From Desulfobacterales bacterium (lineage in GTDB: Bacteria > Desulfobacterota > Desulfobacteria > Desulfobacterales > JAHEIW01), in assembly GCA_041559695.1 (NCBI GenBank), contig JBFFCW010000001.1, positions 1-52,789 on the forward strand: 52,789 nt of DNA, given 5' to 3'. The notes beneath the pieces are model-generated. The model was not told the DNA's origin and did not search any database. It saw only the letters and a list, made by a program, of their open reading frames with translations. The number at the start of each line of letters is the position of its first letter. The first letter of the stretch is position 1. This document shows, one piece after another, positions 1 through 41,308 of this stretch. The position numbers and the translations under genes are program-made.

Positions 1-1058
1 GGCGGGAAAGGGGCATACCCTAAAAATTCAGGGTTGAGTTTGAGCAGGATATGGTGCATAGCGGTGTTGCCGCCGAGGGTAATATCCTCAATATCTTCCC
101 GGGCAAGGCGCAGATAGGTTTTGCCTTCCTCCGGCACTTCCACATATTCAACCGGTCCTTCCTCGCCTTTTTTCTTTTTCTTTTTTTTCTTGGGCGGATG
201 CGTGTTCTGAATAGCCTGGTCAATCAAGGTGTTGAGCCCTTCGATGATATCATCGCTCATGCGCTGAAGCCCATCGGGTGTCGTCATATGGTAGGTGATG
301 CGGGCCATTACGTCTTCACCGTATTTACACTGCGGATTCATCATGGAAACCGTATCGATAACCTCCATTGTGGTAAGGTCGCAGAAATAGGCAGCCACTG
401 TGGTGGTGCCGACATCAATGGCCAGACCGTAAGCATGCTCAAATTTACCCGGCCGGAAGCGGAGGATTTCTTTGTCGTTCCACACGCTGGCCGTGATGCT
501 CCAATTCCCGTCACGCAGTGCCATCGAAAGCTGTCTTAGCGCAAATATATCGACTGTCAGATCCTTAAGGCCATAGTCTCTTTCTAGCGCCCTGCAGACG
601 CGCTCGAAATCCGCTGTCGGTTCCTCAAAGGTGGGCTCGTCCACCTCCACAAAATACAGTTTCACCGCCGGGTTGTGTTCGATGTGAATTTCCCGGGCAG
701 CCTTGCTCACCACCTGCTTACCGGCCCTGGATTCCTCAGGTACGAATACGAGGATATCTCCTTCTACCTGGGCGGTGCAGCCAAGTCGAAAACCTTTCTC
801 CCGCTGTTCGGGTGTTATAAACTTGTCCTCTTCCTCCAGCCAGGGGCTTACATGTGACATGCTGGATTGAATTCCGTATTTTTCGAAATACCCTTCCTCA
901 ATTCGAACAACACACTTTCCACATACCTTTTTCTCTCCACAGAGGGCTTCGATGTCTACACCCAGCAATCGCGATGCCTCTATCAGGGTGATACCTTTGA
1001 GAACTTCACCTCTGCGGCCTGAAGGCTGAAAAACTACCATCACTTTGTCTTCATCCAT
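1..1058 (-). CDS. Corrinoid reductive activase, RACo type (2Fe-2S ferredoxin plus ASKHA ATPase). Only the 5' part is present; the gene continues past the left edge.
   Basis: Absent from the ORF track because no stop lies in the window. My minus-strand translation from ATG 1058 (GGAG at 1067-1070) reads MDEDKVMVVFQPSGRRG..CGEKKVCGKCVV (2Fe-2S motif)..GLAIDVGTTTVAAYF..GGNTAMHHILL. It is colinear with the N-terminal third of the 37847 ORF. Confidence 0.8.
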   Translation of the reverse strand, partial: MDEDKVMVVFQPSGRRGEVLKGITLIEASRLLGVDIEALCGEKKVCGKCVVRIEEGYFEKYGIQSSMSHVSPWLEEEDKFITPEQREKGFRLGCTAQVEGDILVFVPEESRAGKQVVSKAAREIHIEHNPAVKLYFVEVDEPTFEEPTADFERVCRALERDYGLKDLTVDIFALRQLSMALRDGNWSITASVWNDKEILRFRPGKFEHAYGLAIDVGTTTVAAYFCDLTTMEVIDTVSMMNPQCKYGEDVMARITYHMTTPDGLQRMSDDIIEGLNTLIDQAIQNTHPPKKKKKKKKGEEGPVEYVEVPEEGKTYLRLAREDIEDITLGGNTAMHHILLKLNPEFLGYAPFP

Positions 1059-1267
1059 TTACACAACTCCTTCTTTCATATGATTTCGGCGGGTTATCGA
1101 TAAGCCCGTTCGCACAATTATTCGGATCGGGGTTAATGCTAAGATTTGACGCTTTACATGTGAAGACCCGGGCTTCGAATCAATGACAACCTGTCACAGG
1201 CCAGCGTCTGTGCAAAATCAGCAAGGGAAAGGCAATCTTGAACGGTGGGCGCTAAACCGGTGAACGC

Positions 1268-1633
1268 TTATTTCTTCGCTTGCTGGGTTTCATCTTTCTG
1301 CAGAAGAAGGGAACCCTGATGGCGTTTAAACTGAGTGGATGAATATTTGGCCAATTTCCAGTCGGGCACGCCGCAAACCCGGCAGACATCCGTGATCCAT
1401 TTATTGCGAAGCCAGCGGGCCGCTCTGCTGCTTCTGGAATTGTTGACCATGAATGTCTTGTTGCAGTGGGTGGTAATCTGAGCCTGGTCCCCCAGTTTTT
1501 CGATGGTTTTGATACCATGCAGAATTCCTTTTCGCGACGGCCACAGTTTAATTTTATCGATCAGGCGAAACAGCTCGACGCGTTTGCGATAGTATCGTTT
1601 GGCTGGTTTTTTTATTTTTTTCTCTGGCGCCAT
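1268..1633 (-). CDS. pylS: PylSn, the stand-alone N-terminal tRNA-Pyl-binding domain of a split bacterial pyrrolysyl-tRNA synthetase
   Basis: LWPSRKGILHGIK..MVNNSRSSRAARWLRNKW..CRVCGV matches the Methanosarcina PylRS N-terminus (LWMSRTGTIHKIK..VVNNSRSSRTARALRHHKY..CKRCRV). The start is taken at ATG 1633; the ORF track's upstream start at 1720 is a GTG and remains possible. Confidence 0.8.
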   Translation of the reverse strand: MAPEKKIKKPAKRYYRKRVELFRLIDKIKLWPSRKGILHGIKTIEKLGDQAQITTHCNKTFMVNNSRSSRAARWLRNKWITDVCRVCGVPDWKLAKYSSTQFKRHQGSLLLQKDETQQAKK

Positions 1634-2052
1634 GGCTGAATCAGCAGATCTTTCTGTAACGTGTTTGATATCATCTGTTCTCAGTCGGTCTGAATTCGAA
1701 GCGGTATATCGGTACAGCACTTACGTGCTTTTATCGCAATGGCTGTGGGCCGTCAATTTAATTCAGTAAATTTATAAAAATTACGTTTCGATCGGTTCGC
1801 TTCGCTCCTGGGGGGGACAGAAAAAAAATGGCCGGTCAATGCGAAGAAAGGCAGAAACAGAATAATATCCGGGCAAATTTCAGCAAAAATTTTTGAGTCC
1901 ATATAAAAGAGGTGGCATCTTACTGTGAGGCATGCTATGGATATGGTTTCTTGATTTTATCTATACAAGTAAGGTAACATACAGAAACTCAGGCTGTTCG
2001 CCCGTATTTAAGATTTTCAGAATTTCAATCATAATTCAAGCTGGCAATCAAC

Positions 2053-3954
2053 ATGAAATCGCCATCTAAAAAACCTGCCGTGCCCTCTGAACATCGGCCA
2101 GAGGAGCATACTCAGACCCGCAGCCGCCAGATAACGCAATCCGACAAGGTTCTCGGCCCGACTAACAGTAGATGGGATACGGCCCGCTGGCACGTTCCCA
2201 GGGCCCTGTGTACAGATCACAAAAAATTCGCCATCTCCGGGCAATTCGACCAATGCCTTACTTTCCCGGTATTTAATACCCATGCGGAGCCGGATTACCA
2301 TGGCTGGAGCAATTTTGTCCCTGATGAAGTCAAAAAATTTATCGAAAACACGTTCTGCAGCGCGCCGGTTCAAAAGCTAAAAGAAGACCTGGAACTTGCT
2401 GAGCGCAAATATCGACGTCTGTTTGAAGGCTCCAAGGACTTGATCTTTATTGCTCATAAGGATGGCGGATTCAGAGAGGTAAACCAGGCCTGTGTGGATC
2501 TGCTGCGATATGGCAGCAAGGAAGAGCTGTTTTCACTGGGTTCGGTGGGAAAGATTTACGATAAAACCACGCACTGGGAGGTATTTAAAAGACAAATCGA
2601 TCGTGACGGGTTTATAAAAGATTTTGAAGCCCTTTTCAGAAGAAAAGACGGAAGCCGCGTACACTGCCTGCTCAGCGGCAATGCGGTTCGAAGCAAGCAC
2701 GGAGAAATCATCGGCTATCAGGGCATTGCGAAAGACATCACGGCCCGCACGGATGCCACTCGAAATTTTTTCCAGCGACATCGGGAGCTTTGGGTTTTAA
2801 CCTCCGTGGCTTTTGCCATGAACCAGACCCAGGATTTGGACGCCATCCTGATGACCGCCTTGGAAAAGGCCCTGAAGGCGTTAAATCTCACCTGCGGCGG
2901 TATCTTTTTGATCGATTACGATAAACCCGCTTTTGTGCTAAAAGCGCAACAAGGATTTCCCGGGAATGCTACAAAAAAAACCAACCCGATACGGCTTCTT
3001 GACGAAACCCTCATGCGGTCACTGCTCCAAAAAGAGCTTATCCTCACTCCCGAGCCCATATTCCCCCCTTTCAAAGCGATTCTAAAAGGTGAAAATAATA
3101 ATCCGATACAGCTTATTTGTTTTTTGATAACTGCCAAAGAGAAGGCCTCCGGATTCCTTGCATTGGATGTCCCACCGGACAGGGACCTTGCGGCCGGTCA
3201 GGATTTTCACCTTTTGGGGTCATTGGGCAATTTTTTAGGCGGTGCCATTGAGAACAACCGCTTGGCTCAGACCATCGTCCGCCACCGGGAGGAACTCAAA
3301 GGGCTTACCGCCAGGCTGTTTCATTCTCAGGAGACAGAGCGGAGACGAATTGCACGGGAATTGCACGACGAAGTGGGCCAGGCTCTCACCGGGATCAATT
3401 TTACCCTTGAGACCGTTGAAAAAATCGCCGAGAAAGAGCCCGAGCGCCTCAGGCTTCATATTTTAGAAATAAAAAAACAAATCAACGGCACCTACCAGGA
3501 AATGCGCCGCCTGTCTCATTGGCTGCACCCGGCCCTTTTAAGTGATCTCGGGCTGGAGCCGGCGCTGGACGCCTATTTGAAAAATATTTCCGAACGCTGC
3601 GACCTTCGTATCGATTTTACAATGATGGGGTTCACAAAACGGTTGGATCTCGATATCGAAAGTGTTTTGTACCGGCTCGCCCAGGAGGCGCTCACCAACA
3701 CCCTGAAGTATGCCAGTGCAACCCGGTTTAAGCTTTCCATCATCAAGAGTTTTCCCAATATTATTTTCCTGGCTCAAGACGACGGAATCGGGTTTGACGC
3801 CGAAAAATTCATGGAAAACAAGCCGACCCTCGGGCTCTTGTCCATGCGTGAGCGGGCGGCTATGCTGGGCGGCAAATTCACACTGCATACATCAAAAGGG
3901 GCCGGTGTGCGCGTACGGATCGAAATCCCCCTGAAGGAGAGCGCTGATGAGTGA
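2053..3954 (+). CDS. Cytoplasmic sensor histidine kinase (PAS, GAF, HisKA_3, HATPase; NarX/LiaS-like)
   Basis: The H-box is ELHDEVGQALTG and the C-terminal region carries an ATPase G-box (DDGIGF, LGLLSMRERA). No transmembrane segment is apparent. Its stop overlaps the start of the response regulator by 8 nt. Confidence 0.8.
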   Translation: MKSPSKKPAVPSEHRPEEHTQTRSRQITQSDKVLGPTNSRWDTARWHVPRALCTDHKKFAISGQFDQCLTFPVFNTHAEPDYHGWSNFVPDEVKKFIENTFCSAPVQKLKEDLELAERKYRRLFEGSKDLIFIAHKDGGFREVNQACVDLLRYGSKEELFSLGSVGKIYDKTTHWEVFKRQIDRDGFIKDFEALFRRKDGSRVHCLLSGNAVRSKHGEIIGYQGIAKDITARTDATRNFFQRHRELWVLTSVAFAMNQTQDLDAILMTALEKALKALNLTCGGIFLIDYDKPAFVLKAQQGFPGNATKKTNPIRLLDETLMRSLLQKELILTPEPIFPPFKAILKGENNNPIQLICFLITAKEKASGFLALDVPPDRDLAAGQDFHLLGSLGNFLGGAIENNRLAQTIVRHREELKGLTARLFHSQETERRRIARELHDEVGQALTGINFTLETVEKIAEKEPERLRLHILEIKKQINGTYQEMRRLSHWLHPALLSDLGLEPALDAYLKNISERCDLRIDFTMMGFTKRLDLDIESVLYRLAQEALTNTLKYASATRFKLSIIKSFPNIIFLAQDDGIGFDAEKFMENKPTLGLLSMRERAAMLGGKFTLHTSKGAGVRVRIEIPLKESADE

Positions 3955-4642
3955 CAGGACCATCACCGTCTTTCTAGCGGACGATCACACGATTGTGCGG
4001 CAGGGGCTGGCAAAGATGCTGGAGGAAGAACCCCATTTCAAGGTCGTCGGGCAGGCGCACAATGGGCGGGAGGCCGTAAACATGGTAGAGGCGCTGAAAC
4101 CGAACATTGTCATTATGGACATTTCCATGCCCCTCTTAAATGGTATTGAAGCAACGCGGCTAATCAAGAAAAGCCGCCCTCAGACCAAAGTCATCATCCT
4201 CAGCATGCACAGCCATGATCGGTATATCGTGGAGCTTTTCAATCTTGGCATTTCGGGTTATCTGCTGAAAGACTCGACCGGTTCGGACATCATTCAGGCC
4301 ATTTCCGCAGCTGTCAGGGGAGATACCTACCTGAGCCCCTCCATCTCGCAACGGGTCATCGAAGATTACCTTTATTTAAAAAAAAGGTCTCCTCAGGAAG
4401 ACCTTTACGACAAACTTTCCAACCGGGAGCGCGAGGTGTTCCAGATGATTGCCGAAGGGCATTCAACCAAAAAGATTTCGGACATCCTCTGTATCAGCGC
4501 CAGTACGGTTAAAACCCACCGGGCAAATATCATGGAAAAGCTACAATTCGAAAATATTTCCCAGTTGATTCAATTTGCCATACATTTGGGAATTGTTGAC
4601 TTTCAATATTCCGCGCAAAGCCCGGATGAAACGGAAAGGTGA
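3947..4642 (+). CDS. NarL/LuxR-family response regulator (receiver plus HTH)
   Basis: The receiver reads VFLADDHTIVRQGL..MDISMP and the C-terminal LuxR HTH reads LSNREREVFQMIAEGHSTKKISDILCISASTVKTHRANIMEKL. Confidence 0.85.
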   Translation: MSDRTITVFLADDHTIVRQGLAKMLEEEPHFKVVGQAHNGREAVNMVEALKPNIVIMDISMPLLNGIEATRLIKKSRPQTKVIILSMHSHDRYIVELFNLGISGYLLKDSTGSDIIQAISAAVRGDTYLSPSISQRVIEDYLYLKKRSPQEDLYDKLSNREREVFQMIAEGHSTKKISDILCISASTVKTHRANIMEKLQFENISQLIQFAIHLGIVDFQYSAQSPDETER

Positions 4643-4731
4643 TGGTAGTTCAGATGTCTTTGCTCCGTGCAGGGCCGCTACTAAATCTCAAACTACGGGC
4701 GCCAAATTTCAAATTAGTGAACGATCGTCAT

Positions 4732-5859
4732 TCATGGGTGTGAAGCAAGACGGAAGGTTTGGGATGAGCATCGTGAACCAAGGGGTTTTCTGCGAGCCGC
4801 TGTTTCCTTGCGCTCCGCCATCCAGGATTCATATACGTTGCCACTGGCGACCCTCAGCCCCATAGCGGTGATCACTTTTTTAACTTCAGCCACGGTGCGC
4901 AGCCCCTGCTCGATGTCCAAAGCGCTTTGAGAAACTCCGGCCAGCCGGTTGTTGGGGGGAATAATGGATGTGATCACATTGGCTCCGGCATCCAGGCGCA
5001 TTTTGAGCCCTTTAATTCCGTCAACATCCAGCGAAGCGGGAATTAACCGGTCCGGCATGGCCAGACGCATCACCGCGATACACAAACATTCGATCATTCT
5101 CGAAGGGCTGGACATCCCGCAAAGCGGTGTCTCGGACTGGGGCACAAAACTCATCGTCCGGGCCTGGTCCACATCATTTTGCCGCATGGCCATAATGGAA
5201 TCCGCACGATCGTTGAGGGTTTCTCCGACGCCCAGCAAGATCCCGTCTTCCACCAGCATTCCGGCACGACGCGCGGCGTTTCTTTTATCGTTGCGGTATT
5301 TAAAGCGCTGGCCGGTTCTCAATTTTTTAAATAAAACGGAATTGTGAGTTTCCTGGTACAAAGCATACCAGTCCGTCTTAATTGCGGCGAACTGATGCAG
5401 GATTTCCTCGGGGACCACACCCGGTGAAATCATAACCGGTAAGCCTGTGTTTTTCTTTACCTGCGCAATCATTTCGATAAGAATATGGAAGTTGCCGCTA
5501 TCGTGTATCATTGGGTCTTCACCCAGGGTCAGGTCAACCAGATGCACGCCTGAATTTGCCAACTCGCAAGCGATTTCGATGACTTCTTCCAAACTCTTGC
5601 GGTAACGGGGGCTTTGTTTATTCGTTTTTCTATAAAAACAAAAAGTGCAATGATTTCGGCAATAAGTCGATAAATATATGAAACCATACAGGAATAATTG
5701 GTTCGCGAAATGCAGCCGGCACACCTTGCGAGCGGCTGACATAACCAGCTGAATCGATGCAGAATCTTTTAGAGACAATAATTGAAGGGTATCATCCGGT
5801 GATGGAGAAAATCCATGGATTGCCCTATCTAAAATATCGTTTAAACGACGCTGAGGCAT
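4732..5859 (-). CDS. pylB: Radical-SAM methylornithine synthase PylB (pyrrolysine biosynthesis)
   Basis: Colinear with Methanosarcina PylB: FIYLSTYCRNHCTFCFYR (CxxxCxxC), VDLTLGEDP, ALYQETHN, VEDGILLGVG and RLIPASLDVDGIKGLKMRLDAGANVITSIIPP. ATG at 5859. About 25 extra C-terminal residues. Confidence 0.8.
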   Translation of the reverse strand: MPQRRLNDILDRAIHGFSPSPDDTLQLLSLKDSASIQLVMSAARKVCRLHFANQLFLYGFIYLSTYCRNHCTFCFYRKTNKQSPRYRKSLEEVIEIACELANSGVHLVDLTLGEDPMIHDSGNFHILIEMIAQVKKNTGLPVMISPGVVPEEILHQFAAIKTDWYALYQETHNSVLFKKLRTGQRFKYRNDKRNAARRAGMLVEDGILLGVGETLNDRADSIMAMRQNDVDQARTMSFVPQSETPLCGMSSPSRMIECLCIAVMRLAMPDRLIPASLDVDGIKGLKMRLDAGANVITSIIPPNNRLAGVSQSALDIEQGLRTVAEVKKVITAMGLRVASGNVYESWMAERKETAARRKPLGSRCSSQTFRLASHP

Positions 5860-5885
5860 CGTATACCACCTTTTCCGTTTTCCGT

Positions 5886-7718
5886 TTAGTTTAAGCAGTC
5901 TAAAATCGCACAGGCAATTTCAGTCTCATCTTCGACAAACGAAAAGTCCCCTTCTCCCTTGACGGCCAATTGGCGGATTTTCTCACGCTTGGCCGGCGGA
6001 AAACCGATGACACCCAGTTTATCGAACCGCACCGCCGCCTCCAGGGGGTCTCCTCCCCGGTTCCAGGCCCCGTCCGTCAGAATCAGCCCTCTTTTCTCCT
6101 CAAACTTGGCTAAATGATCCAGGCCGGCTTCTAGCGCCAGTCGAATATCGGTATCCCCGCTCAATTGTAAAGCAAACAACCGTTCTAGCACCTCTTCCGG
6201 TCCTGTTGACTCATCGATACCTTTTAGAACGGTAATCTGGTTGCTAAATGCCAAAACACCGTAATCTTTTTTGAAGTGTTGGGCAATGGCGGCGGCCGTG
6301 ATGGCAGCGAGTATGATCTTCATTCCTTTCATGGAATAACTGTGATCAAACATCATGACAAATGCCCTTTTTTCCTGTTGCCTGATGTAAGATACGAGAT
6401 TATCCAAAATCCCCAGTTCCGGTTGCTGCGCATATCTTTCAAGGCTGCAGTCCAATTCTATTTCAGCGCCGTCTGAAAAACCATTTTTCAGTTTCATCCT
6501 TCCGGTGCGGCAGCCGGTGTCGGCAATTTGTTTGGCGATTTTAATGATTAAGCGACTCGCTATTTTTACAGCCAGCGCTCGAACATTTTCTTTCAACATG
6601 CCGATGACATTGGCGAATACTTCCAATGAATCTTGTTTTTCAAAAAAAAGATCAAGCTCGTCGGGATTGGCGTTAAGATAACAAGCCACACGGTAGAAAT
6701 AGGAGCAATGCTCCATTTCTTCGCTTAGAAACCAGTTTGCTACGTAGCGATCAGTTTTTTTTTTGGCCTTTAAGGCTTCATCCGAACTTTTTTCTTCATC
6801 CTCCTGTTGGGTGCCGGGGTCGGTATTCTGGTCCCCGCTGCTCTCAAAATAAGACGCGCCCTTACCCCTTAAGCTGTTCCAAAGATCTTCAATGATTTCA
6901 TCGGCGGATTTCGCCGCCATTTCATTCAACCAGATTTTGTTGGACATGGCCATCCAGGCGGATCTTAAAAAATTTTGCTCCGGTTTATCGCTCAGTTTTT
7001 GCATGCCGTTGAATAAATCAACCAGATCAATACCGGCCCGGATGGATGCGCCCAGCTTGATATCCGGGTGATTTCGCGTCTCGCGCACCATCTTGACGGC
7101 CAATTCAATGATTTTGAGGTTGTCCGATCCGGTCCGAAGTCGAACAATAGCGCGTTCCTCATCTTCGTTCTGGTATTTCATTTTGATCAGGCAAATGCGA
7201 TCCATAAAGGCGCGGCTGACTCTGACAGTGCCGACATCGTCGTAAGGGTTTTGGGCGGCGATCACGGTAAACGGACGAACAGACTTTATCGAGCCGAACC
7301 TGGGAATAGCTATTTCCCCTTCCTCCATCGGAGAAATCAGCACATTGGAAACATCCGCCGGCATCCGATTAAATTCTTCGATGTAAAGAATACCGCCTTT
7401 TTCCATGGCACTTGTTAGCGGTCCCTTCTCAAAATATTCGGGCAGGTAACTATCTGCCATCACTTTGGCCGGATTAAAATGGCCGACCAGTTTGGCGGGT
7501 GTCAGATCGACATTTCCTTCTATTATATAAAACGGAATACCGGCCGCCTTGGCGATTATCCGCAGCAAGGTTGACTTTGACGTGCCGGGCGGCCCTTCCA
7601 AAAGAATATGTTTTCCGGCTTCCATGGCCGTCAGAATCGATATTATTTCGATCTGCCGGCCGACCACCGTTTCACAGGCTTTACGATAGATTTCAGTGAT
7701 TTTAAGTTTTTGTCCCAT
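5886..7718 (-). CDS. MoxR-type AAA+ ATPase fused to a C-terminal von Willebrand factor A (VWA) domain
   Basis: Walker A GPPGTSKST, Walker B ILYIEEFN, AAQNP and AFMDR. An acidic linker follows, then a VWA MIDAS motif (DHSYSM, SGDTD, LTDG). ATG 7718 is preferred; the ORF track's start at 7733 is a GTG. Confidence 0.75.
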   Translation of the reverse strand: MGQKLKITEIYRKACETVVGRQIEIISILTAMEAGKHILLEGPPGTSKSTLLRIIAKAAGIPFYIIEGNVDLTPAKLVGHFNPAKVMADSYLPEYFEKGPLTSAMEKGGILYIEEFNRMPADVSNVLISPMEEGEIAIPRFGSIKSVRPFTVIAAQNPYDDVGTVRVSRAFMDRICLIKMKYQNEDEERAIVRLRTGSDNLKIIELAVKMVRETRNHPDIKLGASIRAGIDLVDLFNGMQKLSDKPEQNFLRSAWMAMSNKIWLNEMAAKSADEIIEDLWNSLRGKGASYFESSGDQNTDPGTQQEDEEKSSDEALKAKKKTDRYVANWFLSEEMEHCSYFYRVACYLNANPDELDLFFEKQDSLEVFANVIGMLKENVRALAVKIASRLIIKIAKQIADTGCRTGRMKLKNGFSDGAEIELDCSLERYAQQPELGILDNLVSYIRQQEKRAFVMMFDHSYSMKGMKIILAAITAAAIAQHFKKDYGVLAFSNQITVLKGIDESTGPEEVLERLFALQLSGDTDIRLALEAGLDHLAKFEEKRGLILTDGAWNRGGDPLEAAVRFDKLGVIGFPPAKREKIRQLAVKGEGDFSFVEDETEIACAILDCLN

Positions 7719-7819
7719 TGCCCCGTTTCTCACATATCCGCTAAATAGCTGATGGGTTGATAGATTGATTCGTACCTATTCAAAATTAAGTCTAAATTAC
7801 CATATGTCACGTTGGCTTT

Positions 7820-8386
7820 TCAGACAAGCAGCAGCCCGATAAAATTGACATATTCCTTTGGCGGCCATTCCACCGCCACACCGGCTTGCCGTGCCAGTTC
7901 GGTGATATCTATGCCGAAACCCTCGGGACTGGGGCGCGCTTTATAGGGGTGACGACAGGGTTCTCCCGGCGGCGCGCAGGCGTCGCACAATTTGCAGCCG
8001 CCCACGCATAGACCCAACGCCTGGTAGAATCCTTTCTCAAAAGCAGCCAATTCCAGATCAGCGACGGCTTCAGATAATTTTAGTTCAGCACTGAAATCCT
8101 GGCGATAATCATTTAGGTTTTTTATTTTTTCCCGTAGCACCACCAAAAACGCTTTACGGTAACTGCGCAAGGCCTCCCTGAATTCCGCCACACTTGGAAT
8201 ATGGGGTGGGCAAACCTTGCAAACGTCAAAATATTCACACAAGGGAACCTGGCACTTTAAGCGCATGCTCTGACGGGGATTAATTTCTTTGACTTCTATC
8301 GGGTAAATATCGACGCCCCACTTGCGCGCCACCGCCTCAAAGGTATCTGCTAAAGTCTGGCCGTTATCCATATCCCCTTTGCTCAC
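7820..8386 (-). CDS. DUF2284 Cys-rich predicted metal-binding protein
   Basis: LKCQVPLCEYFDVCKVCPP and CVGGCKLCDACAPPGEPC. It is a paralogue of the 42515 gene. The start (GTG 8386 or ATG 8371) is uncertain. Confidence 0.65.
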   Translation of the reverse strand: MSKGDMDNGQTLADTFEAVARKWGVDIYPIEVKEINPRQSMRLKCQVPLCEYFDVCKVCPPHIPSVAEFREALRSYRKAFLVVLREKIKNLNDYRQDFSAELKLSEAVADLELAAFEKGFYQALGLCVGGCKLCDACAPPGEPCRHPYKARPSPEGFGIDITELARQAGVAVEWPPKEYVNFIGLLLV

Positions 8387-8428
8387 TTTATTCGGGGCCC
8401 CTTTGTTTGATTTGATATTGTCAATATC

Positions 8429-8452
8429 AGGCCCCGGTGTGAACCGGGGCCT
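8429..8452 (-). other. GC-rich intercistronic hairpin after mtbB
   Basis: AGGCCCCGG-tgtgaa-CCGGGGCCT (9 bp, perfect). Confidence 0.55.
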
Positions 8453-8466
8453 TTTAAACCAAATGG

Positions 8467-9867
8467 TTAAAACTTCATTTTTTCCTTCAAACGATTGACG
8501 CCGGCGATTTCGATATCGAGCAGCTCGGCAATTCTTACTTTTGCCTCAATTCCCTTGGCGCAACCCGGGACAGACGTAATGATCCCTAAGTCCAGCTCCT
8601 CGCGGACCTCTCTCATTACGTGTACATCCGACAGGTCGGCCGGGGAAACTTTTAGCTTTTTGGCAACGTAGGCTTTTGCGTCGTTGATCCGCATCTTGCG
8701 GGCCATCTGCATGCGGGCCACCAGATCTCCGGCGGTCCTGATTCCACCCATTCCTGCTGCCACTCCGTGAGCTATCGACATCCCCATGGGATCTCCCACG
8801 CCAATCTACAAACCGTCTACTTTGGCAATTTCCACCATGGCCTTCGACGCCCGGCTGACTGAATCGATAGGCGGTGTCTCGAATATCGGCGAGCCGCCAA
8901 CACCCATTCCCATGTTCACATGGATGGGGATGTTGGACGCTTCAACGCACGCTTTTACAAAGGTCACCGCTCTGGCCACATTCCACGGCATGTTTTTGCT
9001 GGGCTTGGTGTTTACCACCGGGCCAAAAATATCCGCCCCGGCTTGCTCCACGAGCTTGACTTGATCATGGCAGTACAAACCAGCGAGTTGCTGACCTTCA
9101 TATTCCAGACCGCCGTGCATACCGAGTACAAATTCTCCGGCCATTCCCACTTCAATGCACATATCGGTGTTTTTTTTCAGATGCTCGACGGCGTGCAGGG
9201 TGGCCTTAAAATCCGTATCGCCCGCAGCCCCGGTGGTATCGAAGTTTATCCCGTCACAACCGACCTCTGCGAGTCTTTCGCATACATAAACCATGTCCCG
9301 AATGGCGTGCTCCACCGCCCCTTCCTGGGCCTCATAGGACTCCTGGATCTTGCCCGCGGGCAGCAAATCCGAAGGATTTCCAAAAGGCCCGTCGGGACTG
9401 TAGTACAGACCCAGGTTTGGCATGGCGCCATAAAAGAGCGGCAGAATCGTTACCAGCAGCGCATTTTCCATTTCCTGCTGTTCCATAGCAATAACCGGCT
9501 TTACCGGCTTAAAGCTATAATCGATATGTCCCAGCTCCATGGTATCGGCACAAAATGCCCTTTCATGGACCTGGATGCCCTGCACCCGGCTCAGCGGTAT
9601 GCCGACACCGCTGTTGCCCTGGTCTCCCATCACCCGCAGGGTTCCGATATCGTGGGTGACGACCACTTCGTTCCCCGGCTCCACACTTACAAACCGAGTG
9701 GGGTTGGTAAAGATGTCCAGCAGGATGTCCAGATCATCTTTTGACAGCGGCGCTATCTTGCCCTTGTCGGCGGCGTCTGCAGTGCCCGCCTCCAAGTCGC
9801 TCATTATTTCCTCGGAAGTCATTTCAATGAGCGCTCCGTCCCCCCGTCTAGTAAGGTATTTCGCCAT
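8467..9867 (-). CDS. mtbB: Dimethylamine:corrinoid methyltransferase MtbB with in-frame UAG (Pyl) at 8806-8808, codon 354
   Basis: ORFs 8806-9885 and 8467-8799 are in the same frame and are separated only by TAG. The junction [16 protein letters not shown] equals the Methanosarcina MtbB VDG(I/L)-Pyl-IGVGDPLGM. The alignment holds over the full length ([24 protein letters not shown]). A strong RBS (GGAGGTGA) precedes ATG 9867. Confidence 0.9.
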
Positions 9868-9881
9868 ATTCTCACCTCCTT

Positions 9882-10526
9882 TCAACTGAATATTTCTTTG
9901 AGTTTCATCACCGTATCACCGGCGTTTTCCGCCCAAAAAGTCGCACCGATTTTGGCAGCCCAGTGTTCAGTGGTCGCCGCACCGCCGACCATAGTGGTCA
10001 GCTTGTCTCGAATTCCCGCGTCTTTCAGGGCTTGCTCAAGGGCTTTTTGCCCCACCTGGGTCGTTGTCATCAGCGCCGAGGAACCGACAACATCTGCGTC
10101 GGCCTCTTTTGCTTTTTCCACAAACGTCGCAATCGGTACATCTCGGCCCAGATCGATGACCTCAAAGCCGTAAACCCTAAGCATGGTGGCGACAATGCCT
10201 TTGCCGATGTCATGCACGTCCCCTTCGACCGTCCCGATCACAACCTTGGCCAGTTTCTTGCCGACCTGGTCTGCGGGCATGGCCTGTTCCAGTACCTTTA
10301 CCGCTGCCGTCATCGCCTCGGACGCGATGATCAGATGCGGTAAAAAGACCTCTCCGCGATCAAAGAGGTCCCCCAGTTTCCGGATGCCTTCAGAAAGACC
10401 TTTTTCGATCATCTCAACCGGATCGAGACCCTCATCTAAATATTCCTGGGCCAATTTCACTGCAGCTTGCTCATTTGCATCAATGATGTGCTGGGCAGCC
10501 TTTTCCATGAATTCCGCTTTGTCCAT
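9882..10526 (-). CDS. mtbC: B12-binding corrinoid protein (MtbC-like)
   Basis: DxHxxG motif (GDVHDIGK) plus SALMTTT and GGA motifs. It lies immediately upstream of mtbB. Confidence 0.85.
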
Positions 10527-10696
10527 CGATATTCACCTCCTTTCTTGGTTAAGGTAAAAACCGCATTTGATTTTTCCTTTTTGATGTGTCTCTCTATGAA
10601 TACCTTAACTGCCGTGGTGACCGACTTGTTTTGGGTTGGATAAATTTGTGTGACTGGAATCATTTTCTATGCCTGACAGCGCACCGTTATTTCCCT

Positions 10697-12394
10697 TCAA
10701 GTTTCACCCTTGGCAGCATACAATTTTTTTTGTACAAAGACTTTTTCCTGACAGGATTTTTCACATCTCCTGCAGGCAAGCCCATTGCATCGGGCCAGAT
10801 CGATGGTAATAGAAAATTTCCCCTCCTCCTCTTCCAGGACAAGGGCCTCCTCGGGACATTCTTCGATACAGTCCTCACAGCCAACGCAGCCTTCGAAAGC
10901 AATCGTTTTATGTTCACCAATATCGGAAATAATCTCCAGGCCCTTGATCCCAAGATCCGGAATATCCTTTTGCACTGTTTTGATGACTTCTGGAATCATC
11001 TCAGTCTCTTTTAACGGTGGAAGACCGAATTTTTCCAAAAACTGCTGGTACTGATTCATGGGCATCCCCTGGGTCCAATAAGAAAGTTCCAGGATATACA
11101 CCTGTTCAAATACCTTGGACTCAGCGAACATGCAGTGATGCTGTCGAAGATCATCGGCGATGCGCTTCATGCGCCAGAGTTCATCCACACGCTTGACCAT
11201 ATCCCTGGCCATGGCCAGGGACGAGTTTCCCACCTGGTAGATTTTGTTAACCCCGGGCGGTATCATGCCGATTTCCTGGGCTTTGAGCGCATCTACGTAA
11301 GTACCAGAAGCACCGGACATATAAGCGGTTTCGACATCTTCCAGTCGGATCCCGGCCTCCTGACACAGGGAGATATGACCGGCCCTGACCGCGCCGATGG
11401 CCTTGCCGGCTTCCTCAAGATCTTTCTCCGTAAACTTGATCCCGTCGGGCAAATGGATTTTTGCGTCCGAAGTATGGATCTTGGGAAGCCGAATGGTATG
11501 GGTTTTAAGGTTCTGGCTGATCAGGGCAATAACCCCGGTCCCGGTTATGCCGACGGCTTTTTCCAGTCCTTTTTCAAGCAACGCTCCCGTGGCTGGATCC
11601 ACCGTATCGCCCGGCTGAACCGTCATCGTGTCATCGAGGATAAATGTTTTCATCCGCCTGCTGATCGCTTGATCTTCCTGCGGGTTGTCTGCAACGCCGA
11701 TACCTTCACCTTTTAACGCCTCAAACTCGACATCGCAGATGGCCCCGGGAAGCGCCAATAGTCCATCTTCTATGTGTTGACCTTCCAGGGCCGGTCCGGC
11801 GGCTGTTGAACCGGTATAAACCGTGCCGTCGACGATCAGGGCCATCTCGGCATTCGTACCGTAGTCTGTGGTAATGGCGATTTCATCGCTGTTCAGCATG
11901 CCGGTCTGAATCATCATCGCCAGTGCATCGGCACCGATTTCATGCCGAACCGCCGGGGGAACCAGGATATCCGTGTTTGGCGGCAGATTGAGCGCGGAAA
12001 TTTCGCGAGCTTTCATGATTTGCGCGTCTCTTTTGGGAGCCACCACTCCCAAAGACGCCAGTTTCCGTTTTCCCGCATAGGCAAGATCCCTGATTTCGAT
12101 CTCCTGGAAAAGGGAAAGCTGGATGGGGTTGCCACAGACCGCCAGCCTGACCACCTCATTATTTTCGATCTTTAGATGGTCAATTACCCGGTTGACGGCA
12201 TGCACCACAATTTTGTGGGCTCGATCAAGACCCATCTCAACGGCAAAATGAAGGTGATCCATGACATTGGCGCCCGGAAGGGGATGCCGGGTGGTGACAG
12301 CGGTGGACAAAATCCTTCCATTTTGATCCAGATCGAGGGCCTGCCCGCGAAAACCACTGGTGCCCAAATCCAATGCAACACCCAGTCTTGCCAT
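10697..12394 (-). CDS. ramA: RamA-type methylamine corrinoid activation protein (ASKHA ATPase plus C-terminal 2x[4Fe-4S] ferredoxin)
   Basis: Near-colinear with M. barkeri RamA: ALDLGTSGFR, RLAVCGNPIQLSLFQ, IGADALAMM, TDYGTNAEMAL and LSYWTQGMP. The C-terminus carries CVGCEDCIEECP and CRRCEKSC. Confidence 0.9.
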   Translation of the reverse strand: MARLGVALDLGTSGFRGQALDLDQNGRILSTAVTTRHPLPGANVMDHLHFAVEMGLDRAHKIVVHAVNRVIDHLKIENNEVVRLAVCGNPIQLSLFQEIEIRDLAYAGKRKLASLGVVAPKRDAQIMKAREISALNLPPNTDILVPPAVRHEIGADALAMMIQTGMLNSDEIAITTDYGTNAEMALIVDGTVYTGSTAAGPALEGQHIEDGLLALPGAICDVEFEALKGEGIGVADNPQEDQAISRRMKTFILDDTMTVQPGDTVDPATGALLEKGLEKAVGITGTGVIALISQNLKTHTIRLPKIHTSDAKIHLPDGIKFTEKDLEEAGKAIGAVRAGHISLCQEAGIRLEDVETAYMSGASGTYVDALKAQEIGMIPPGVNKIYQVGNSSLAMARDMVKRVDELWRMKRIADDLRQHHCMFAESKVFEQVYILELSYWTQGMPMNQYQQFLEKFGLPPLKETEMIPEVIKTVQKDIPDLGIKGLEIISDIGEHKTIAFEGCVGCEDCIEECPEEALVLEEEEGKFSITIDLARCNGLACRRCEKSCQEKVFVQKKLYAAKGET

Positions 12395-12464
12395 TCTATT
12401 GCTTATCTCCTGTCTCGATTGGAATTGCCATGCCGAAATTGGCAGAATTCGTTAATTTTCAACT

Positions 12465-12515
12465 TTGATGAATTCGTAAAAAGTTTGCTTTTCTGACTTT
12501 TTACGAGATTATCAA
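12465..12515. repeat. Palindromic element between the mtbA-like gene and ramA, related to 49119-49150
   Basis: TTGATGAATTCGTAAAAAGT-ttgcttttctg-ACTTTTTACGAGATTATCAA. The inner 10 bp are perfect. The 18-mer TTGATGAATTCGTAAAAA is identical to the reverse complement of 49133-49150. Confidence 0.65.
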
Positions 12516-12536
12516 CTTTCAATCGACACTTTTCAA

Positions 12537-13550
12537 TCAATGCGCCTCGGCCGCTTCCAGCATGGCCTTGAGGTTCAGCGTCGTCGTCGCCGGCCCGACC
12601 GCACAGCCCGGTGCCAGGATCTGGATGCCGTCGGCAATGGCCGTCTCGGCTTCCTGTTTTATCTCTTCGGGCCCATGCAAAAATAGGGTGGTCGCCACAT
12701 CTATTCCGCCCAACAACACAATATCCGGTCCGCATTTCTCCCTGGCAACCCGAGGATTTGTTTTCGGGTCCAGGCTTAGAACAGTCGCGCCGGTTTGCCC
12801 CATCCATTCGACAATGTTGTCGACCTTGCCGCAGATATGCAAAAGCGTCGGGACAGAGATGGCTTCAAACTGTCTGGTCTGATATTCCAATTCATAATCT
12901 TTGTATGTTTTCGGCGCAATCAGCTCAGGCGAGGCGGTCATATCTTCGCAGGAAATGATGTCGGCCCCGGCATCGATAAGCGCTTTTGCCAGCGTGGTTC
13001 CGGCCTTTTCCCCGATCTCCAACCAGGGCCGCATCTTTTCGGGTGCTTTGAAAGACGCCTTGAGAAGGGGAACCGTATCGATAAGAGAACCGGCAATGGT
13101 AAAAGGCCCGATGATTCCAGCCACCACCGGCACTTCATCGCCCAATTCCTTTTTTAAAATGCCGACGGCTTTGAGCAGTTCCGGAATAAACCCCCGCGAA
13201 AGAAAATCATCGGGGAATACCGGCGTGTCGTCAAGATTAAACGCCGGCGGGTGATCGATCCCCGGAATTCCTTCAACACCGCCCGGGCCCTTTCCCGGTT
13301 TTATCTTAGATCCTAAAGCGCGCGCTTCAAACGTTTGACAGAATGGAACTCTGACCGCGTCAAAACCCAGGACCGTATGTGAGGCAAGCGCCAGTTTGGC
13401 CATGGCTTCCCCGTCTTCATGCGCTTTGGGCCAAAAGGCTTGAACCGCATCCATTTGCTCGTAAGTTGCCATAGAGTTGGCTCCAAAACACGGCATCCGG
13501 TCCGGCTTTTCATGGTTGAGAACCGCCATAACACGTTCTTTCGAATTCAT
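12537..13550 (-). CDS. UroD-family methylcobamide methyltransferase (MtbA/MtaA-like)
   Basis: MNSKERVMAVLNHEKPDRMPCF..VRVPFCQTFEARALG..LHICG is typical of the MtaA/MtbA/UroD fold. RBS GGAGG before ATG 13550. Confidence 0.8.
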   Translation of the reverse strand: MNSKERVMAVLNHEKPDRMPCFGANSMATYEQMDAVQAFWPKAHEDGEAMAKLALASHTVLGFDAVRVPFCQTFEARALGSKIKPGKGPGGVEGIPGIDHPPAFNLDDTPVFPDDFLSRGFIPELLKAVGILKKELGDEVPVVAGIIGPFTIAGSLIDTVPLLKASFKAPEKMRPWLEIGEKAGTTLAKALIDAGADIISCEDMTASPELIAPKTYKDYELEYQTRQFEAISVPTLLHICGKVDNIVEWMGQTGATVLSLDPKTNPRVAREKCGPDIVLLGGIDVATTLFLHGPEEIKQEAETAIADGIQILAPGCAVGPATTTLNLKAMLEAAEAH

Positions 13551-13650
13551 TTAATAACCTCCTCGTCATTTAATTGGTTTTTTATTCATAACTGCCGCGC
13601 TATTTTTCAGATCTGGACGATTCTGTTGTATACCGAAAAAATAGGGGGCA

Positions 13651-13941: not shown

Positions 13942-15435
13942 TTATTTCTCCGCGGCTTTTGCGGCTTCTTCCGCTTCTAAAGCTTCCTGCTCTTCAACGA
14001 TGGAACGTAGTTTCGACGACACATCTTTGGGCAACGGAACCGGCTTATGGTTTTCCAAAATGTGGCGGGCTTCTTCTGCAGCCGCCTCGGCCATATCTTT
14101 GCCGCCACGTTTTTGCCAGGCCCCTCTCATCCGCCGGTCGATCAGCTTTACCTTGGACTGCTCCGGTCCCATATACTGCCGGGTATGCTTCTGAGCTAAA
14201 AAGTCCTTTCCGGCCCCGACCCTCTTGATGAGTTCAACCGCCAGGGTGTCATCGTTGATGGGTACACCTTGAACAACTCTTTTGCACATCCGGGCGATCT
14301 CATTATCAATCACAAGCTGGGCAAAGCTGAAAGTCACACCTAACTCCAACATACCCATCCCATAAATGAGATTTGCGCCCGCCAATGCCGGCAGCAGGGA
14401 GGTCATGGTTTTCTCATGCCCTGCTTGGACATCGGAAACCTTGCTGTCAGCCTACGCACCGGCGACATAGCTGGGTAAAAGGTACTTGCGTGCCAATGCC
14501 GTAACACCGGCACTGATCATGCCCAGTTCCGGTGCTCCCACCGGAGCGGTGGCATAGGTTAAATCAAAGGTTGTAGTCGAGCTGCCGTAAATCACCGGAG
14601 CGCCTTTGGCAGTCAACTGGGCCAGAACAATGCCGGACAACACTTCGGCATTGTGGGTCACCAGGGTCCCGCCAACGGTGACAGGGGAAGAAGCCCCTGA
14701 CATGGCCATGGAAAGAACGTTCACCGGAACCCCCGCCTTGGCGCACTCGATAATGATTTCAGCCGTATGAGTATGCAGCTCCAACGGGCTGGTGGGACAC
14801 ACCAGAGCGGAAACCAGGGGCCGCCTCCGCAGCTCGTCCATTCCGCCAATGATTTCGGCGGCCATTTCAAAAAACTTTTTGGCCCCGTCTCCGCCGGTCA
14901 GGTCAATGTGCTGACAGTGCTTGGACGTATTGCTCAAAAACGCCTCGGCTTCGTTTAAATCGGTGGCCCGTTCGACGTCTCTGGCCACCACTGCGCTGGA
15001 GTAAACATCCACATTATCCATGGCGTCACATGCCAGCGCGGTATGTCCGACATCCTGTTTGTTGGATTCCCGGAACTCACCGTTAAAGGGATCCACCACC
15101 ATGACGCCGGCGCCAAAGCTGGTGAATCCGACTCTGCCACCCTGCAGGGTGACATCATATTCCGGGGTTCGTCCGGCCAGCAGGATGGTGCTGGGAGCGG
15201 AACTAATGGCATCTTCCACCAGATGGGGAGGAATTCGAACATGGTTGTTCTCACGGTCCACGTAGGCGCCGCCATTTTCGAAAATATCCATGGCTTCGTC
15301 ACAATGAACCCCGACGCCGTAGTTTTGCAGGACGTCCAAGGTGGCGAGATGAATCTCGGTCAATTCATCATCGGTGAACATGCTCAACCCCCAGCCATCC
15401 ATGGTGCTGATGCCTGGTTGAAGTCCTCTGATCAT
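13942..15435 (-). CDS. mttB: Trimethylamine:corrinoid methyltransferase MttB with in-frame UAG (Pyl) at 14452-14454, codon 328
   Basis: ORFs 14452-15444 and 13942-14406 are in the same frame. Reading through gives [49 protein letters not shown], against M. barkeri [40 protein letters not shown] before ATG 15435. Confidence 0.9.
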
Positions 15436-15455
15436 AAGTATCACCTCCTTTGCTG

Positions 15456-16100
15456 CTATTTGATTAATTCTTTGGCTTTGAGAACCGTATCGTTCGCATC
15501 CTCAGCATAGCAATCGCAACCGATTTTATCCGCCCATTCCTGGGTGGTTGCCGCTCCACCGATCATGGTTTTAAAATTATCCCTGATACCGGCTTTGCGC
15601 AGCTTTTCTTCAAGGATTTTTTGCCCACCCATGGTCGTGGTCATCAGGGAAGAAGAGCCCAGTATATCCGGTTTAAGCTCTTTGGCCTTCTCAACGAACT
15701 CGTCGATCGGCACATCCCGGCCCAGATCATGAACTTCAAAGCCATAAACTTTCAGCATTGTCGCCACAATCCGTTTGCCGATATCATGGATGTCACCTTC
15801 GATGGTTCCAATGACGACGGTGCCTAACGATTCTGCAACTTCTTCCTTTGGAATATGCGGTTCCATTATCGCAATGGCCTTTGTCATGGCCTCGGCGGCT
15901 ACCAGGACACCGGGAAGGGGAATTTCTTCATTTGCGAAACCGTCACCCACCTCGGTCATTGCCGGTGACAAGCCTTCATTAATGATTTCCACCGGGTTGA
16001 TCCCCTCTTCAATGACTTTTTTGGCCATGGCCTCGGCAGCTTCCTCGTCACCCTGCACGACAGCCTGCCGGGCCTCTTTTAACAGGTCTTCCTTGCTCAT
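15456..16100 (-). CDS. mttC: B12-binding corrinoid protein (MttC-like)
   Basis: GDIHDIGK, SSLMTTT and GGAATT motifs. RBS [9 protein letters not shown]. It is the first gene of the minus-strand string and ends in TAG, with a TGA five codons later. Confidence 0.85.
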   Translation of the reverse strand: MSKEDLLKEARQAVVQGDEEAAEAMAKKVIEEGINPVEIINEGLSPAMTEVGDGFANEEIPLPGVLVAAEAMTKAIAIMEPHIPKEEVAESLGTVVIGTIEGDIHDIGKRIVATMLKVYGFEVHDLGRDVPIDEFVEKAKELKPDILGSSSLMTTTMGGQKILEEKLRKAGIRDNFKTMIGGAATTQEWADKIGCDCYAEDANDTVLKAKELIK

Positions 16101-16404
16101 CGGATCACCTCCTTTCTATTTTTCTCATAGAATGTTAGTGTGTTACCGGTTGACTTTATTTCTCCCGCTTCGGTTCAGATATAACGGTTCGACGTCCCCC
16201 CTGGTGGGAATTTTGCAGGAATTCCTCTGATTTTCATCATCGGTTCCGGATTGCGTCCCTTGGGGATCGGATTATTCAATCCGGCAAATCCGCGTGAATA
16301 TATTATCACCTCCCTCCGAATCGTACGGTTTTGAAGATGAGGGGAATGAAACGTCGCCCATAAACAAACTGGATCAGAAAATGGCATAAAAAATATCTGA
16401 AATT

Positions 16405-16454
16405 ATTGCAATAGTCCATTGGATGATTTTTGTTGGCATGCGGGTCTATTTTGG
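16405..16454 (-). promoter_or_regulatory. Conserved ~50-bp operator/promoter box, copy A, upstream of mttC-mttB
   Basis: The minus strand reads CCAAAATAGACC-N12-AAAATCATCCAATGGACTATTGCAAT. The same 12+12+26 layout occurs in copies B-D and E. A TTGCAA hexamer is followed 17 bp later by TATGCC. Confidence 0.6.
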
Positions 16455-16605
16455 TTTCCATTGAGCCTGATAAGGATTTGTATATATATATGATATTTTA
16501 AAATTTTTGTAAACGCTCAGCCACCAGCACGCAACGGCATCTACTGTTTCCTGTGGAATGATTGTCGATTTAAGGTGTTCTGTCAATCTTAATTGGCAAA
16601 CAGTT

Positions 16606-17614: not shown

Positions 17615-17641
17615 ACGTTTTAGCGGAAAGGAGGGATATAC

Positions 17642-19027: not shown

Positions 19028-19059
19028 AAAGATGGTGGTGCGCCGAGTTGAAGATTGAG

Positions 19060-41299: not shown

Positions 41300-41308
41300 A
41301 CCAACGGT

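Follow-up and report, generated by a model that had tools for sequence, protein, structure and literature searches.

Here, we analysed a 52,789-nt stretch of DNA (the window), which is contig C1 of a 3.9-Mb, 487-contig Desulfobacterales metagenome-assembled genome (MAG; 72% complete, 3.7% contamination), with regard to its genes for the synthesis and decoding of pyrrolysine (Pyl), the 22nd amino acid. Two pyl genes, pylB and pylSn, lie in the window, and the others were found on a second contig, C4. The best explanation, which we consider probable, is that the organism, an uncultured bacterium of the sulfate-reducer type, has a complete pyl system distributed over at least two loci, that its native pylB was deleted, and that a foreign pylB, placed last in a methylamine methyltransferase operon, substitutes for it and couples Pyl synthesis to the methylamine regulon. 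Labels with G, C and L denote sampled genomes, their contigs, and fetched loci or environmental contigs, respectively; G000 is the genome analysed here, G115 is Desulfococcaceae bacterium HSG9, and G110, G115 and G136 represent three Desulfobacterales families other than that of the window organism.

The part of the window that holds the two pyl genes comprises the following features:

1268..1633, minus strand, pylSn, encoding the tRNA-binding small subunit of the split bacterial pyrrolysyl-tRNA synthetase (PylRS; TIGR03912)
1634..2052, no strand, divergent spacer between pylSn and the kinase gene (419 nt, GC 0.45, AT-richer than its surroundings)
2053..3954, plus strand, soluble PAS-GAF-HisKA_3-HATPase_c sensor histidine kinase (Pfam PAS, GAF_3, HisKA_3, HATPase_c)
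3947..4642, plus strand, NarL/LuxR-type response regulator with a receiver domain (REC) and a GerE helix-turn-helix (Pfam Response_reg, GerE)
4732..5859, minus strand, pylB, encoding methylornithine synthase (TIGR03910), the last gene of a methylamine string

An earlier sequence-only reading of this DNA had named these and further elements, and the open reading frame (ORF) listing together with profile searches placed every one of them where it had been reported. That reading had also described the pyl genes as dispersed, which proved correct: the window holds only pylB and pylSn, and pylT, pylSc, pylC and pylD were not found in it. Neither ARAGORN nor Rfam detected any tRNA in the window, so that a pylT overlooked there, for which the earlier reading had allowed, did not come to light.

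The identity of the window PylB is clear from its match to TIGR03910 (440.7 bits against an equivalog cut-off of 348.2, model positions 3-347 of 347) and to the structure of PylB from M. barkeri (3T7V; 281 bits, residues 7-341). The CxxxCxxC motif of radical S-adenosylmethionine (SAM) enzymes is kept, with YCRNHCTFCFY of the window protein aligned to YCKNQCSFCYY of 3T7V. A profile search of the genome found exactly one pylB in the assembly, the one in the window. The genome also has pylC, pylD, pylS and pylT, and its UAG-containing methyltransferase genes, of which there are at least five, depend on Pyl; with no second pylB present in the assembly, we infer that the product of the window gene converts lysine to 3-methyl-D-ornithine.

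PylSn is encoded by a 121-aa ORF starting from the ATG at 1633 and matches TIGR03912 over the complete model (126.7 bits against a cut-off of 51.15, positions 1-89 of 89). It is thus a stand-alone protein of the class of about 110-120 aa with an above-cut-off match to the PylS N-terminal domain. In an alignment with the PylRS N-terminal domain 5UD5, the stretch VNNSRSSR, a His/Cys pair and a CxxC motif are conserved, the latter two of which we take to include the zinc-binding residues of that domain. The genome profile search returned a single pylSn for the whole assembly, located in the window and detached from pylSc.

On contig C4, the remainder of the system was found at the ancestral position of the cassette and in this order:

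C4 22883-22956, pylT, tRNA-Pyl(cta), found by ARAGORN
C4 23037-23879, pylSc (328.8 bits, cut-off 178)
C4 23876-24022 (L011 10877-11023), 48-codon pylB relic between pylSc and pylC
C4 24016-25206, pylC (423.0 bits, cut-off 248)
C4 25184-26044, pylD (263.0 bits, cut-off 150)

Whole-genome profile searches gave C4 as the sole location of PylSc, PylC and PylD in the assembly. With pylT, pylSc, pylC and pylD on C4 and pylSn and pylB on C1, the pyl system is thus complete. The tRNA encoded by pylT is predicted to fold into a compact cloverleaf with CUA in a 7-nt anticodon loop. A compact order of the pyl genes is usual and is not required for function; the order pylT-Sc-B-C-D-Sn is absent from this genome, in which C1 carries pylB and pylSn, and C4 the remaining genes. 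The sequence-only reading would have been undermined by a complete cassette with a second pylB elsewhere. The C4 cassette carries only the relic.

What happened to the native pylB can be read from a comparison with contig C24 of the same-genus genome G107, with which C4 is collinear at 72-85% nucleotide identity and which has the order pylT-Sc-B-C-D-Sn. Relative to G107, approximately 1.0 kb of pylB is missing from C4, with a short stretch in its place, and pylSn plus the subsequent 5.9 kb are missing after pylD. The first 25 residues encoded by the short stretch align with G107 PylB 1-25 (MRFKVN... vs MRIKVN...) and the last 23 with G107 PylB 353-375 (YQNGVKRRQ...AEAAC vs YQSWLKGRQ...TEAAC). 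The relic corresponds to an in-frame loss of codons 26-352, which comprise the entire catalytic core, and its fused N- and C-terminal PylB ends indicate that the native pylB was deleted in place. The 48-aa ORF also occurs in sister MAGs, in which gene callers annotated it as a hypothetical protein. Apart from the pyl genes, a flavocytochrome c gene (flavin adenine dinucleotide-binding) is inserted on C4 between an AOR-like gene and pylT (L011 8350-9774) relative to G107, and the corrinoid protein gene that follows mtbB in G107 has no counterpart in this genome.

Relatives that keep pylSn in the cassette have it at the cassette end. Nothing close to the 5.9 kb located 3' of pylSn in G107 was found in this genome, in which only weak, paralogue-like matches of 67-70% were obtained. 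A repeat search around the relocated pylSn (window 900-2200) yielded no meaningful direct or inverted repeats, only short matches at chance level; traces of a mobile element as the cause of the relocation were thus not found in this region.

The replacement of the native gene by one of another lineage is supported by the comparison of the individual Pyl proteins. Judged by identity, PylSc (79%), PylC (65-67%) and PylD (66%) look native to the genus, as the values refer to their same-genus counterparts. In contrast, the window PylB is only 50% identical to the same-genus cassette PylB, 63-64% identical to the cassette PylB of Firmicutes and 72-80% identical to the operon-end PylB of G110, G115 and G136. 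In a maximum-likelihood tree, the window protein, that of HSG9, the operon-end copy of G136 and both copies of G110 form one clade with a support of 100/100, for which we introduce the name operon-end ('type 2') PylB lineage in this analysis. The clade is sister to the Firmicutes PylB (99/97) and apart from all Desulfobacterales cassette PylB (99/99), and an approximately unbiased (AU) test rejected a single Desulfobacterales PylB clade (p = 0.010). As judged from these comparisons, the window pylB is a xenologue, i.e. a gene of a foreign lineage replacing the native cassette gene, a point that the sequence-only reading had not recognised.

Upstream of pylB, the co-directional methylamine string consists of the following genes, and a repeat search revealed a recurrent element, here called the regulon box, ahead of it:

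5886..7733, minus strand, AAA_5 (MoxR-like)-VWA fusion, directly upstream of pylB (Pfam AAA_5, VWA_CoxE, VWA)
7820..8386, minus strand, DUF2284-type metal-binding protein (weak NCBIfam DUF2284-domain matches; Pfam DUF2284 on the identical gene of sister MAGs)
8467..9885, minus strand, mtbB, dimethylamine methyltransferase (TIGR02368, 663 bits with TAG read through)
9882..10526, minus strand, mtbC-type corrinoid protein (TIGR02370, 242 bits)
10697..12394, minus strand, ramA, corrinoid protein reductive activase (TIGR04270, 764 bits)
12537..13550, minus strand, MtaA/MtbA-like methylcobamide methyltransferase of the URO-D fold (NF004889, 305 bits; TIGR01463, 265 bits)
13942..15444, minus strand, mttB, trimethylamine methyltransferase (TIGR02369, 740 bits with TAG read through)
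15456..16100, minus strand, mttC-type corrinoid protein, first gene of the string (TIGR02370, 254 bits)
16382..16456, minus strand, regulon box with an ATAGTCC...GGACTAT dyad, approximately 280 nt upstream of mttC
16604-16678, 19478-19555, 27543-27617 and 35714-35789, other copies of the box

mtbB is a client of the Pyl system, with an in-frame TAG at 8806-8808 and an Rfam PYLIS_2 match of 81.5 bits at 8709-8808; mttB has its in-frame TAG at 14452-14454 and an Rfam PYLIS_3 match of 86.6 bits. The pylB gene begins 26 nt after the stop codon of the AAA-VWA gene and is preceded by an AAGGTGG ribosome-binding site, and no terminator-like site was found within the intergenic gaps of the mttC...pylB string. 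A terminal position of pylB in such an operon recurs in five other lineages (G110, G136, HSG9, L045 and L047). In G110:C13, G136:C150, L045 and L047, pylB is the last gene after mtaA-ramA-mtbC-mtbB-(DUF2284)-AAA-VWA, and as in the window it follows the preceding gene by less than 50 nt; in all operon-end lineages examined, with PylB identities of 67-100%, this gap measures 18-47 nt. The context differs in HSG9, in which pylB follows mtaA, and in G110:C119 and L043, in which it follows the gene of a 195-aa protein (ORF195). The AAA-VWA gene itself is a single 615-aa fusion in the window and two adjacent genes (about 324-348 aa and 275-276 aa) in L045 and L047; tblastn suggests separate AAA and VWA genes for G110, G136 and G139 as well.

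The box is approximately 75 nt long and heads five operons in the window with its five copies. It is conserved in G110, G136 and G139. A whole-genome nhmmer search with the box profile returned five matches, all with E <= 5e-13 and all on C1, the next having E = 0.29; the box was found neither before pylT on C4 nor in the pylSn-kinase spacer (1634-2052). A single regulon for all pyl genes is unsupported on these grounds, as the profile is significant at the five window sites only. The box heads the mttC...pylB string and is absent before pylT and pylSn, which makes a coupling of pylB to methylamine utilisation plausible and leaves direct control of decoding by the neighbouring kinase unsupported. 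That pylB expression is tied to the methylamine operon had already been proposed in the sequence-only reading and is retained here as a prediction, to which the short gap, the ribosome-binding site, the lack of intergenic terminator-like sites, the recurrent operon-end position and the box all contribute.

To place this layout in its taxonomic context, we compared the positions of PylB, PylC, PylSn and PylSc in the 42 of 301 sampled Desulfobacterales species genomes that contain pylB. The majority (32 of 42) have the compact order Sc-B-C-D-Sn, some of them cut by contig ends, nine are split or dispersed (G000, G094, G110, G115, G147, G160, G198, G200 and G263), and G154 shows both kinds. Outside the slot between pylSc and pylC, pylB was found in 10 of the 42 genomes, with a lone pylB in G147, G198 and G263, and it is evidently the loosest and most mobile pyl gene in this order. 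Among the four species genomes with an operon-end pylB, three have lost the cassette copy. G136 keeps a full cassette with its own pylB besides the operon-end copy. The cassette of G110 reads pylSc-pylC-pylD-pylSn without pylB, and tblastn gave only chance-level matches to a pylB remnant in its 515-nt pylSc-pylC gap. HSG9 has pylSc-pylD with neither pylB nor pylC in the cassette.

Further layouts were observed in the same survey. In G094 and G200, a pylT-pylB-pylSn unit stands apart from pylSc-pylC-pylD (L019, G094:C1, 9270-10825; L025, G200:C8, 13423-15099), so that the tRNA gene accompanies pylB and pylSn and not the catalytic subunit of the synthetase. The same-genus G154 has pylSc-pylC-pylD-pylSn followed by a convergent, long-branch pylB of the cassette type (L029, G154:C392, 3-3851); this MAG also holds an ordinary pylB-pylC fragment and may be a mixture of strains. 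In HSG9 (L055, G115:C91, 7199-8897), pylD directly follows pylSc, the distance from pylT to the downstream pylSc is 3 kb, and two further contigs carry pylSn (L054, G115:C35, 7473-7817) and pylB, respectively. A pylC was not detected in any part of the 94%-complete HSG9 genome; either it lies in an assembly gap or the pyl system of this organism is decaying.

The ORF195 mentioned above has a counterpart in the window (43121-43708, minus strand). It has no Pfam or NCBIfam match and 468 homologues with 60-89% identity, nearly all of them 195 aa long, and its AlphaFold model (pLDDT 84, pTM 0.78) matches no PDB fold (best E = 0.23). In HSG9, the gene follows pylSn at a distance of 15 nt, and in G110:C119 and L043 it immediately precedes the operon-end pylB. 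It was always found among corrinoid methyltransferase genes (RamA/RACo, URO-D, DUF2284, MtaB), and a role as pyl-specific accessory gene was rejected because its neighbours are corrinoid methyltransferase genes in general.

The genes of the operon-end lineage form a module, mtaA-ramA-mtbC-mtbB-(DUF2284)-AAA-VWA-pylB, usually with a convergent HisKA_3/NarL pair, which occurs in several Desulfobacterales families and not in the genus of the window organism. We suggest that the module was acquired horizontally, that its pylB would have made the cassette copy redundant and that the cassette copy was then lost, a course of events that would amount to xenologous displacement. With both pylB copies, G136 looks like the intermediate state of this displacement.

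But does the position of pylB at the operon end have any meaning for its expression? The gene could be a passenger at the end of the island, transcribed from a weak or constitutive promoter of its own, and the split of the pyl genes could be neutral gene-order drift that is tolerated as the product of PylB is diffusible. The pronounced mobility of pylB, which is outside its slot in several unrelated contexts, its position after mtaA in HSG9 and after ORF195 in G110:C119, and a promoter-like site 285 nt upstream of pylB, inside the AAA-VWA gene, would all fit. Drift of this kind sits poorly with a gap kept at 18-47 nt across all operon-end lineages examined and with the loss of the cassette copy in three of four genomes, which suggests that the operon-borne copy is sufficient and perhaps preferred. 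We thus regard the passenger explanation as unlikely.

A second question concerns the kinase/regulator pair between the two pyl genes. The two genes of the pair share 8 nt, and the regulator gene and pylB are convergent. All Pfam domains of the pair score above their gathering thresholds except GAF_3 (24.4 vs 27), and both the H-box of the kinase and the receiver Asp are present, as is characteristic of a NarL-family two-component system. Orthologues of the kinase (66-76% identity) were found only in the island-bearing G110, G115, G136 and G139, and same-genus genomes have only paralogues with 46-47% identity. The regulator is 75-82% identical to the regulator in the same position in G110, G115, G136 and the environmental contig L045, and in these four the orthologous pair converges on the operon-end pylB as well. 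The sequence-only reading had supposed that the pair may control Pyl decoding. In its strongest form, this would mean direct control of pylSn and/or pylT-pylSc expression by the pair, which would explain why pylSn lies beside it. The divergent arrangement of pylSn and the kinase gene around a common 419-nt spacer and the conservation of the pair next to operon-end pylB genes speak for such a role. However, the adjacency of pylSn and the pair is unique to this species, as the position held by pylSn here is occupied by a RACo gene in G110 and by a TPR gene in L045, and neither the spacer nor the region 5' of pylT contains the regulon box, the sole element of this kind that could be recognised. 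Moreover, G139 contains the box-flanked orthologous pair with a methylamine island that lacks pylB and has a normal pyl cassette elsewhere in its genome, which links the pair to the methylamine genes and not to pylB or decoding as such. We therefore did not uphold the supposition and consider direct control doubtful; any control of decoding by the pair would be indirect only, via pylB and the supply of Pyl.

Most likely, the two-component pair acts on the methylamine regulon through the box as its putative binding site. In G136, a box lies just upstream of the orthologous kinase gene (L031, G136:C150, 11595-11662), and in G139 boxes are located on either side of the regulator-kinase pair (L051, G139:C26, 15366-15420 and 18562-18628). 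This arrangement suggests a pair that is autoregulated and putatively binds the box. The corresponding upstream region in the window (1634-2052) has no box, and pylSn lies there instead.

It is very unlikely that the window pylB serves a different function as an auxiliary paralogue and that an intact cassette-type pylB is hidden in the unrecovered 28% of the genome. The genome is indeed incomplete and both kinds of pylB coexist in G136, but the cassette slot is contiguous and holds the relic only, likewise in the sister MAGs, the score of the window PylB is at equivalog level with an intact radical-SAM motif, and the UAG-containing methyltransferase genes, at least five in number, need Pyl.

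The composition of the window itself bears on whether the split is real. The comparison with the DNA of relatives, made as two 20-kb searches, assigned the window to two kinds of sequence. Positions 2107-19072 and about 35970-42400 match G136, G110 and G115 at 72-88% nucleotide identity, and no match for these parts was found by DNA search in seven same-genus genomes. Positions 1-1058 and 48025-52789 match same-genus genomes at 75-85%, e.g. G028:C40 and G107:C43. The gene at the first of these ends is:

3..1058, minus strand, 5' part of a RACo/AcsV-like corrinoid activase gene (Pfam Fer2, RACo_linker, Raco_middle)

It is located downstream of pylSn on the same strand, is present at full length (686 aa) on sister MAG contigs, and this end of the contig is common to same-genus genomes at 69-77% nucleotide identity (e.g. 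G107:C43 and G154:C189). GC content and tetranucleotide profile of the window are ordinary for the bin. A palindrome resembling repetitive extragenic palindromic (REP) elements (CGTAAAAAGT...ACTTTTTACG), a 45-nt hairpin, lies at 12465-12515 between the mtaA-like gene and ramA, inside the island; copies of it were found on at least seven other contigs of this genome, on at least 12 contigs of the same-genus G154, and once in G110. The REP-like element is thereby useful as a host-specific marker within the acquired island.

The exact window PylB protein is encoded on 13 public contigs. Window-like contigs that are long enough show the order string-pylB, regulator-kinase, pylSn and RACo, and the order pylSn-kinase-regulator-pylB is present in at least five independent assemblies. 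GCA_041559255.1, GCA_041555015.1, GCA_041571755.1 and GCA_041561115.1 each contain a window-like contig plus a contig with pylT-Sc-relic-C-D; with at least four independently binned MAGs holding both contigs, the split is reproducible and not an assembly artefact. Mis-binning is likewise unsupported by composition and by the synteny of the flanks. Hence, although the MAG is fragmented and partly contaminated, all four clear same-genus genomes have a compact cassette and the island part of C1 is closer to other families than to its own genus, we give hardly any credence to the idea that C1 and C4 stem from different populations, or that pylSn was chimerically joined to the island, with an ordinary pylT-Sc-B-C-D-Sn order in the true genome: both ends of C1 find their only or best matches in same-genus genomes, its composition is typical of the bin and its island contains the genus-typical REP-like repeat, gene order and binning recur as described, and the C4 cassette, with a pylB deletion scar and without pylSn, lacks exactly the two genes carried by C1.

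Several points weigh against a complete system with a substituted, regulon-coupled pylB. The genome is just 72% complete, and another pylB may be in the unrecovered part. The PylB tree, on which both the direction of the transfer and the donor rest, is unrooted and contains no archaeal sequences, and the group used for the AU test was named after the first tree had been seen. The relocated pylSn could be native or co-transferred, as its identity to same-genus PylSn (76-82% at the amino acid level) and to PylSn of island-bearing genomes (76-84%) is alike. Three intergenic gaps of the string are larger (391, 142 and 170 nt), and a promoter-like site lies at 12536-12508, so that the string may comprise more than one transcription unit; co-transcription of pylB with mtbB or mttB is predicted from spacing and synteny only. 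Finally, no box was found within the fetched DNA of L045 and L047, whose strings start at mtaA.

If a foreign, operon-end pylB indeed supplies the pathway, the system would work as follows. PylB would make free 3-methyl-D-ornithine, the committed precursor of Pyl. Transcription of the single pylB would come from the methylamine string with the box at its head, and Pyl would accordingly be produced mostly while the methylamine regulon is active. The C4-encoded PylC and PylD would complete the amino acid, PylSc and PylSn would charge tRNA-Pyl(CUA), and the UAG codons of mttB, mtbB and mtmB would be decoded as Pyl. As the product of PylB is a free metabolite, pylB need not adjoin the other pyl genes, and gating of pylB alone would gate decoding.

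Following this argumentation, we tentatively propose a conditional expansion of the genetic code via one gene: lineages that gained the pylB-bearing module may repeatedly have dropped the cassette pylB, and UAG might mean Pyl only when the box-controlled, two-component-regulated methylamine regulon fires, and stop otherwise. If true, this would be a simple natural way for Pyl users to avoid genome-wide UAG read-through while Pyl enzymes are not required, with the gate on the supply of the amino acid and not on the tRNA or synthetase. As a rule, the pyl genes are described as one compact, self-contained cassette transferred between genomes as a unit. Here, the cassette has been taken apart in nature, and its biosynthetic entry gene has been replaced by a foreign copy on a substrate-utilisation operon, with the scar of the old copy still visible. 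For genome annotation, this implies that pipelines requiring an intact pylBCD cluster would miscall about a quarter of the Pyl-positive Desulfobacterales.

Known systems resemble the one described here in different respects. The kinase/regulator pair shares its domain architecture with the NarL/UhpA-family systems (HisKA_3 kinase plus REC-GerE regulator), yet the window kinase is a soluble protein whose sensor domains are PAS and GAF, and the pair stays below every equivalog cut-off, the best being MctS/MctR (154 and 187 bits against 700 and 300). In the literature searched, we found no paper linking pyl genes to a two-component system. In Acetohalobium arabaticum, studied by Prat et al. in 2012, Pyl synthesis and UAG read-through are reportedly switched on only during growth on trimethylamine. 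This is the same outcome as that of the logic proposed here, but in A. arabaticum regulation covers an entire compact pyl cluster, whereas here only pylB would be wired into the methylamine regulon, by a coupling that is predicted. The cluster of the Desulfitobacterium hafniense type (pylT-pylSc-pylB-pylC-pylD-pylSn) has the same six components and the same split of the synthetase into PylSn and PylSc, and its exact order is found in the same-genus G107 and G285 as well as in the complete genome G085. In contrast, the genome analysed here has pylB and pylSn outside the cassette, a relic in the slot and, on a different contig, a pylB of another lineage that closes a methyltransferase operon.

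Organisms of the same kind and metabolism, with Pyl-dependent MttB and MtbB in bacteria of the sulfate-reducer type, are among the Pyl-using marine Deltaproteobacteria and Desulfobacterales treated by Zhang & Gladyshev 2007 (PMC1976440) and Kivenson et al. 2021 (PMC8318568), as far as the available text of these papers goes. In the PylB tree of Kivenson et al., 'several divergent sequences' of deltaproteobacterial origin fall outside the main clades (PMC8318568). Within the available text, both papers are silent on gene order, an operon-end pylB lineage, loss of the cassette pylB and a two-component pair, and the words 'operon' and 'synteny' are absent from PMC8318568.

For bacteria, the available text of Borrel et al. 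2014 (PMC3941956) gives pylTScBCDSn or pylSnScBCD as the usual layouts, at times interrupted by other genes, and it places pylB of 'Candidatus Methanomethylophilus alvus' about 0.7 Mb from pylTSCD. With a single-copy pylB apart from a compact pylT-S-C-D, this organism appears to be the nearest published precedent for the layout. It differs in being an archaeon with an unsplit PylRS that lacks PylSn, and for it that text reports no deletion scar, foreign pylB, embedding in a methylamine operon or adjacent two-component system (PMC3941956). A detached pylB as such is thus already known from 'Ca. M. alvus' and common in the Desulfobacterales; what is notable in the window organism is the clear deletion scar together with a recurrent, operon-borne pylB lineage.

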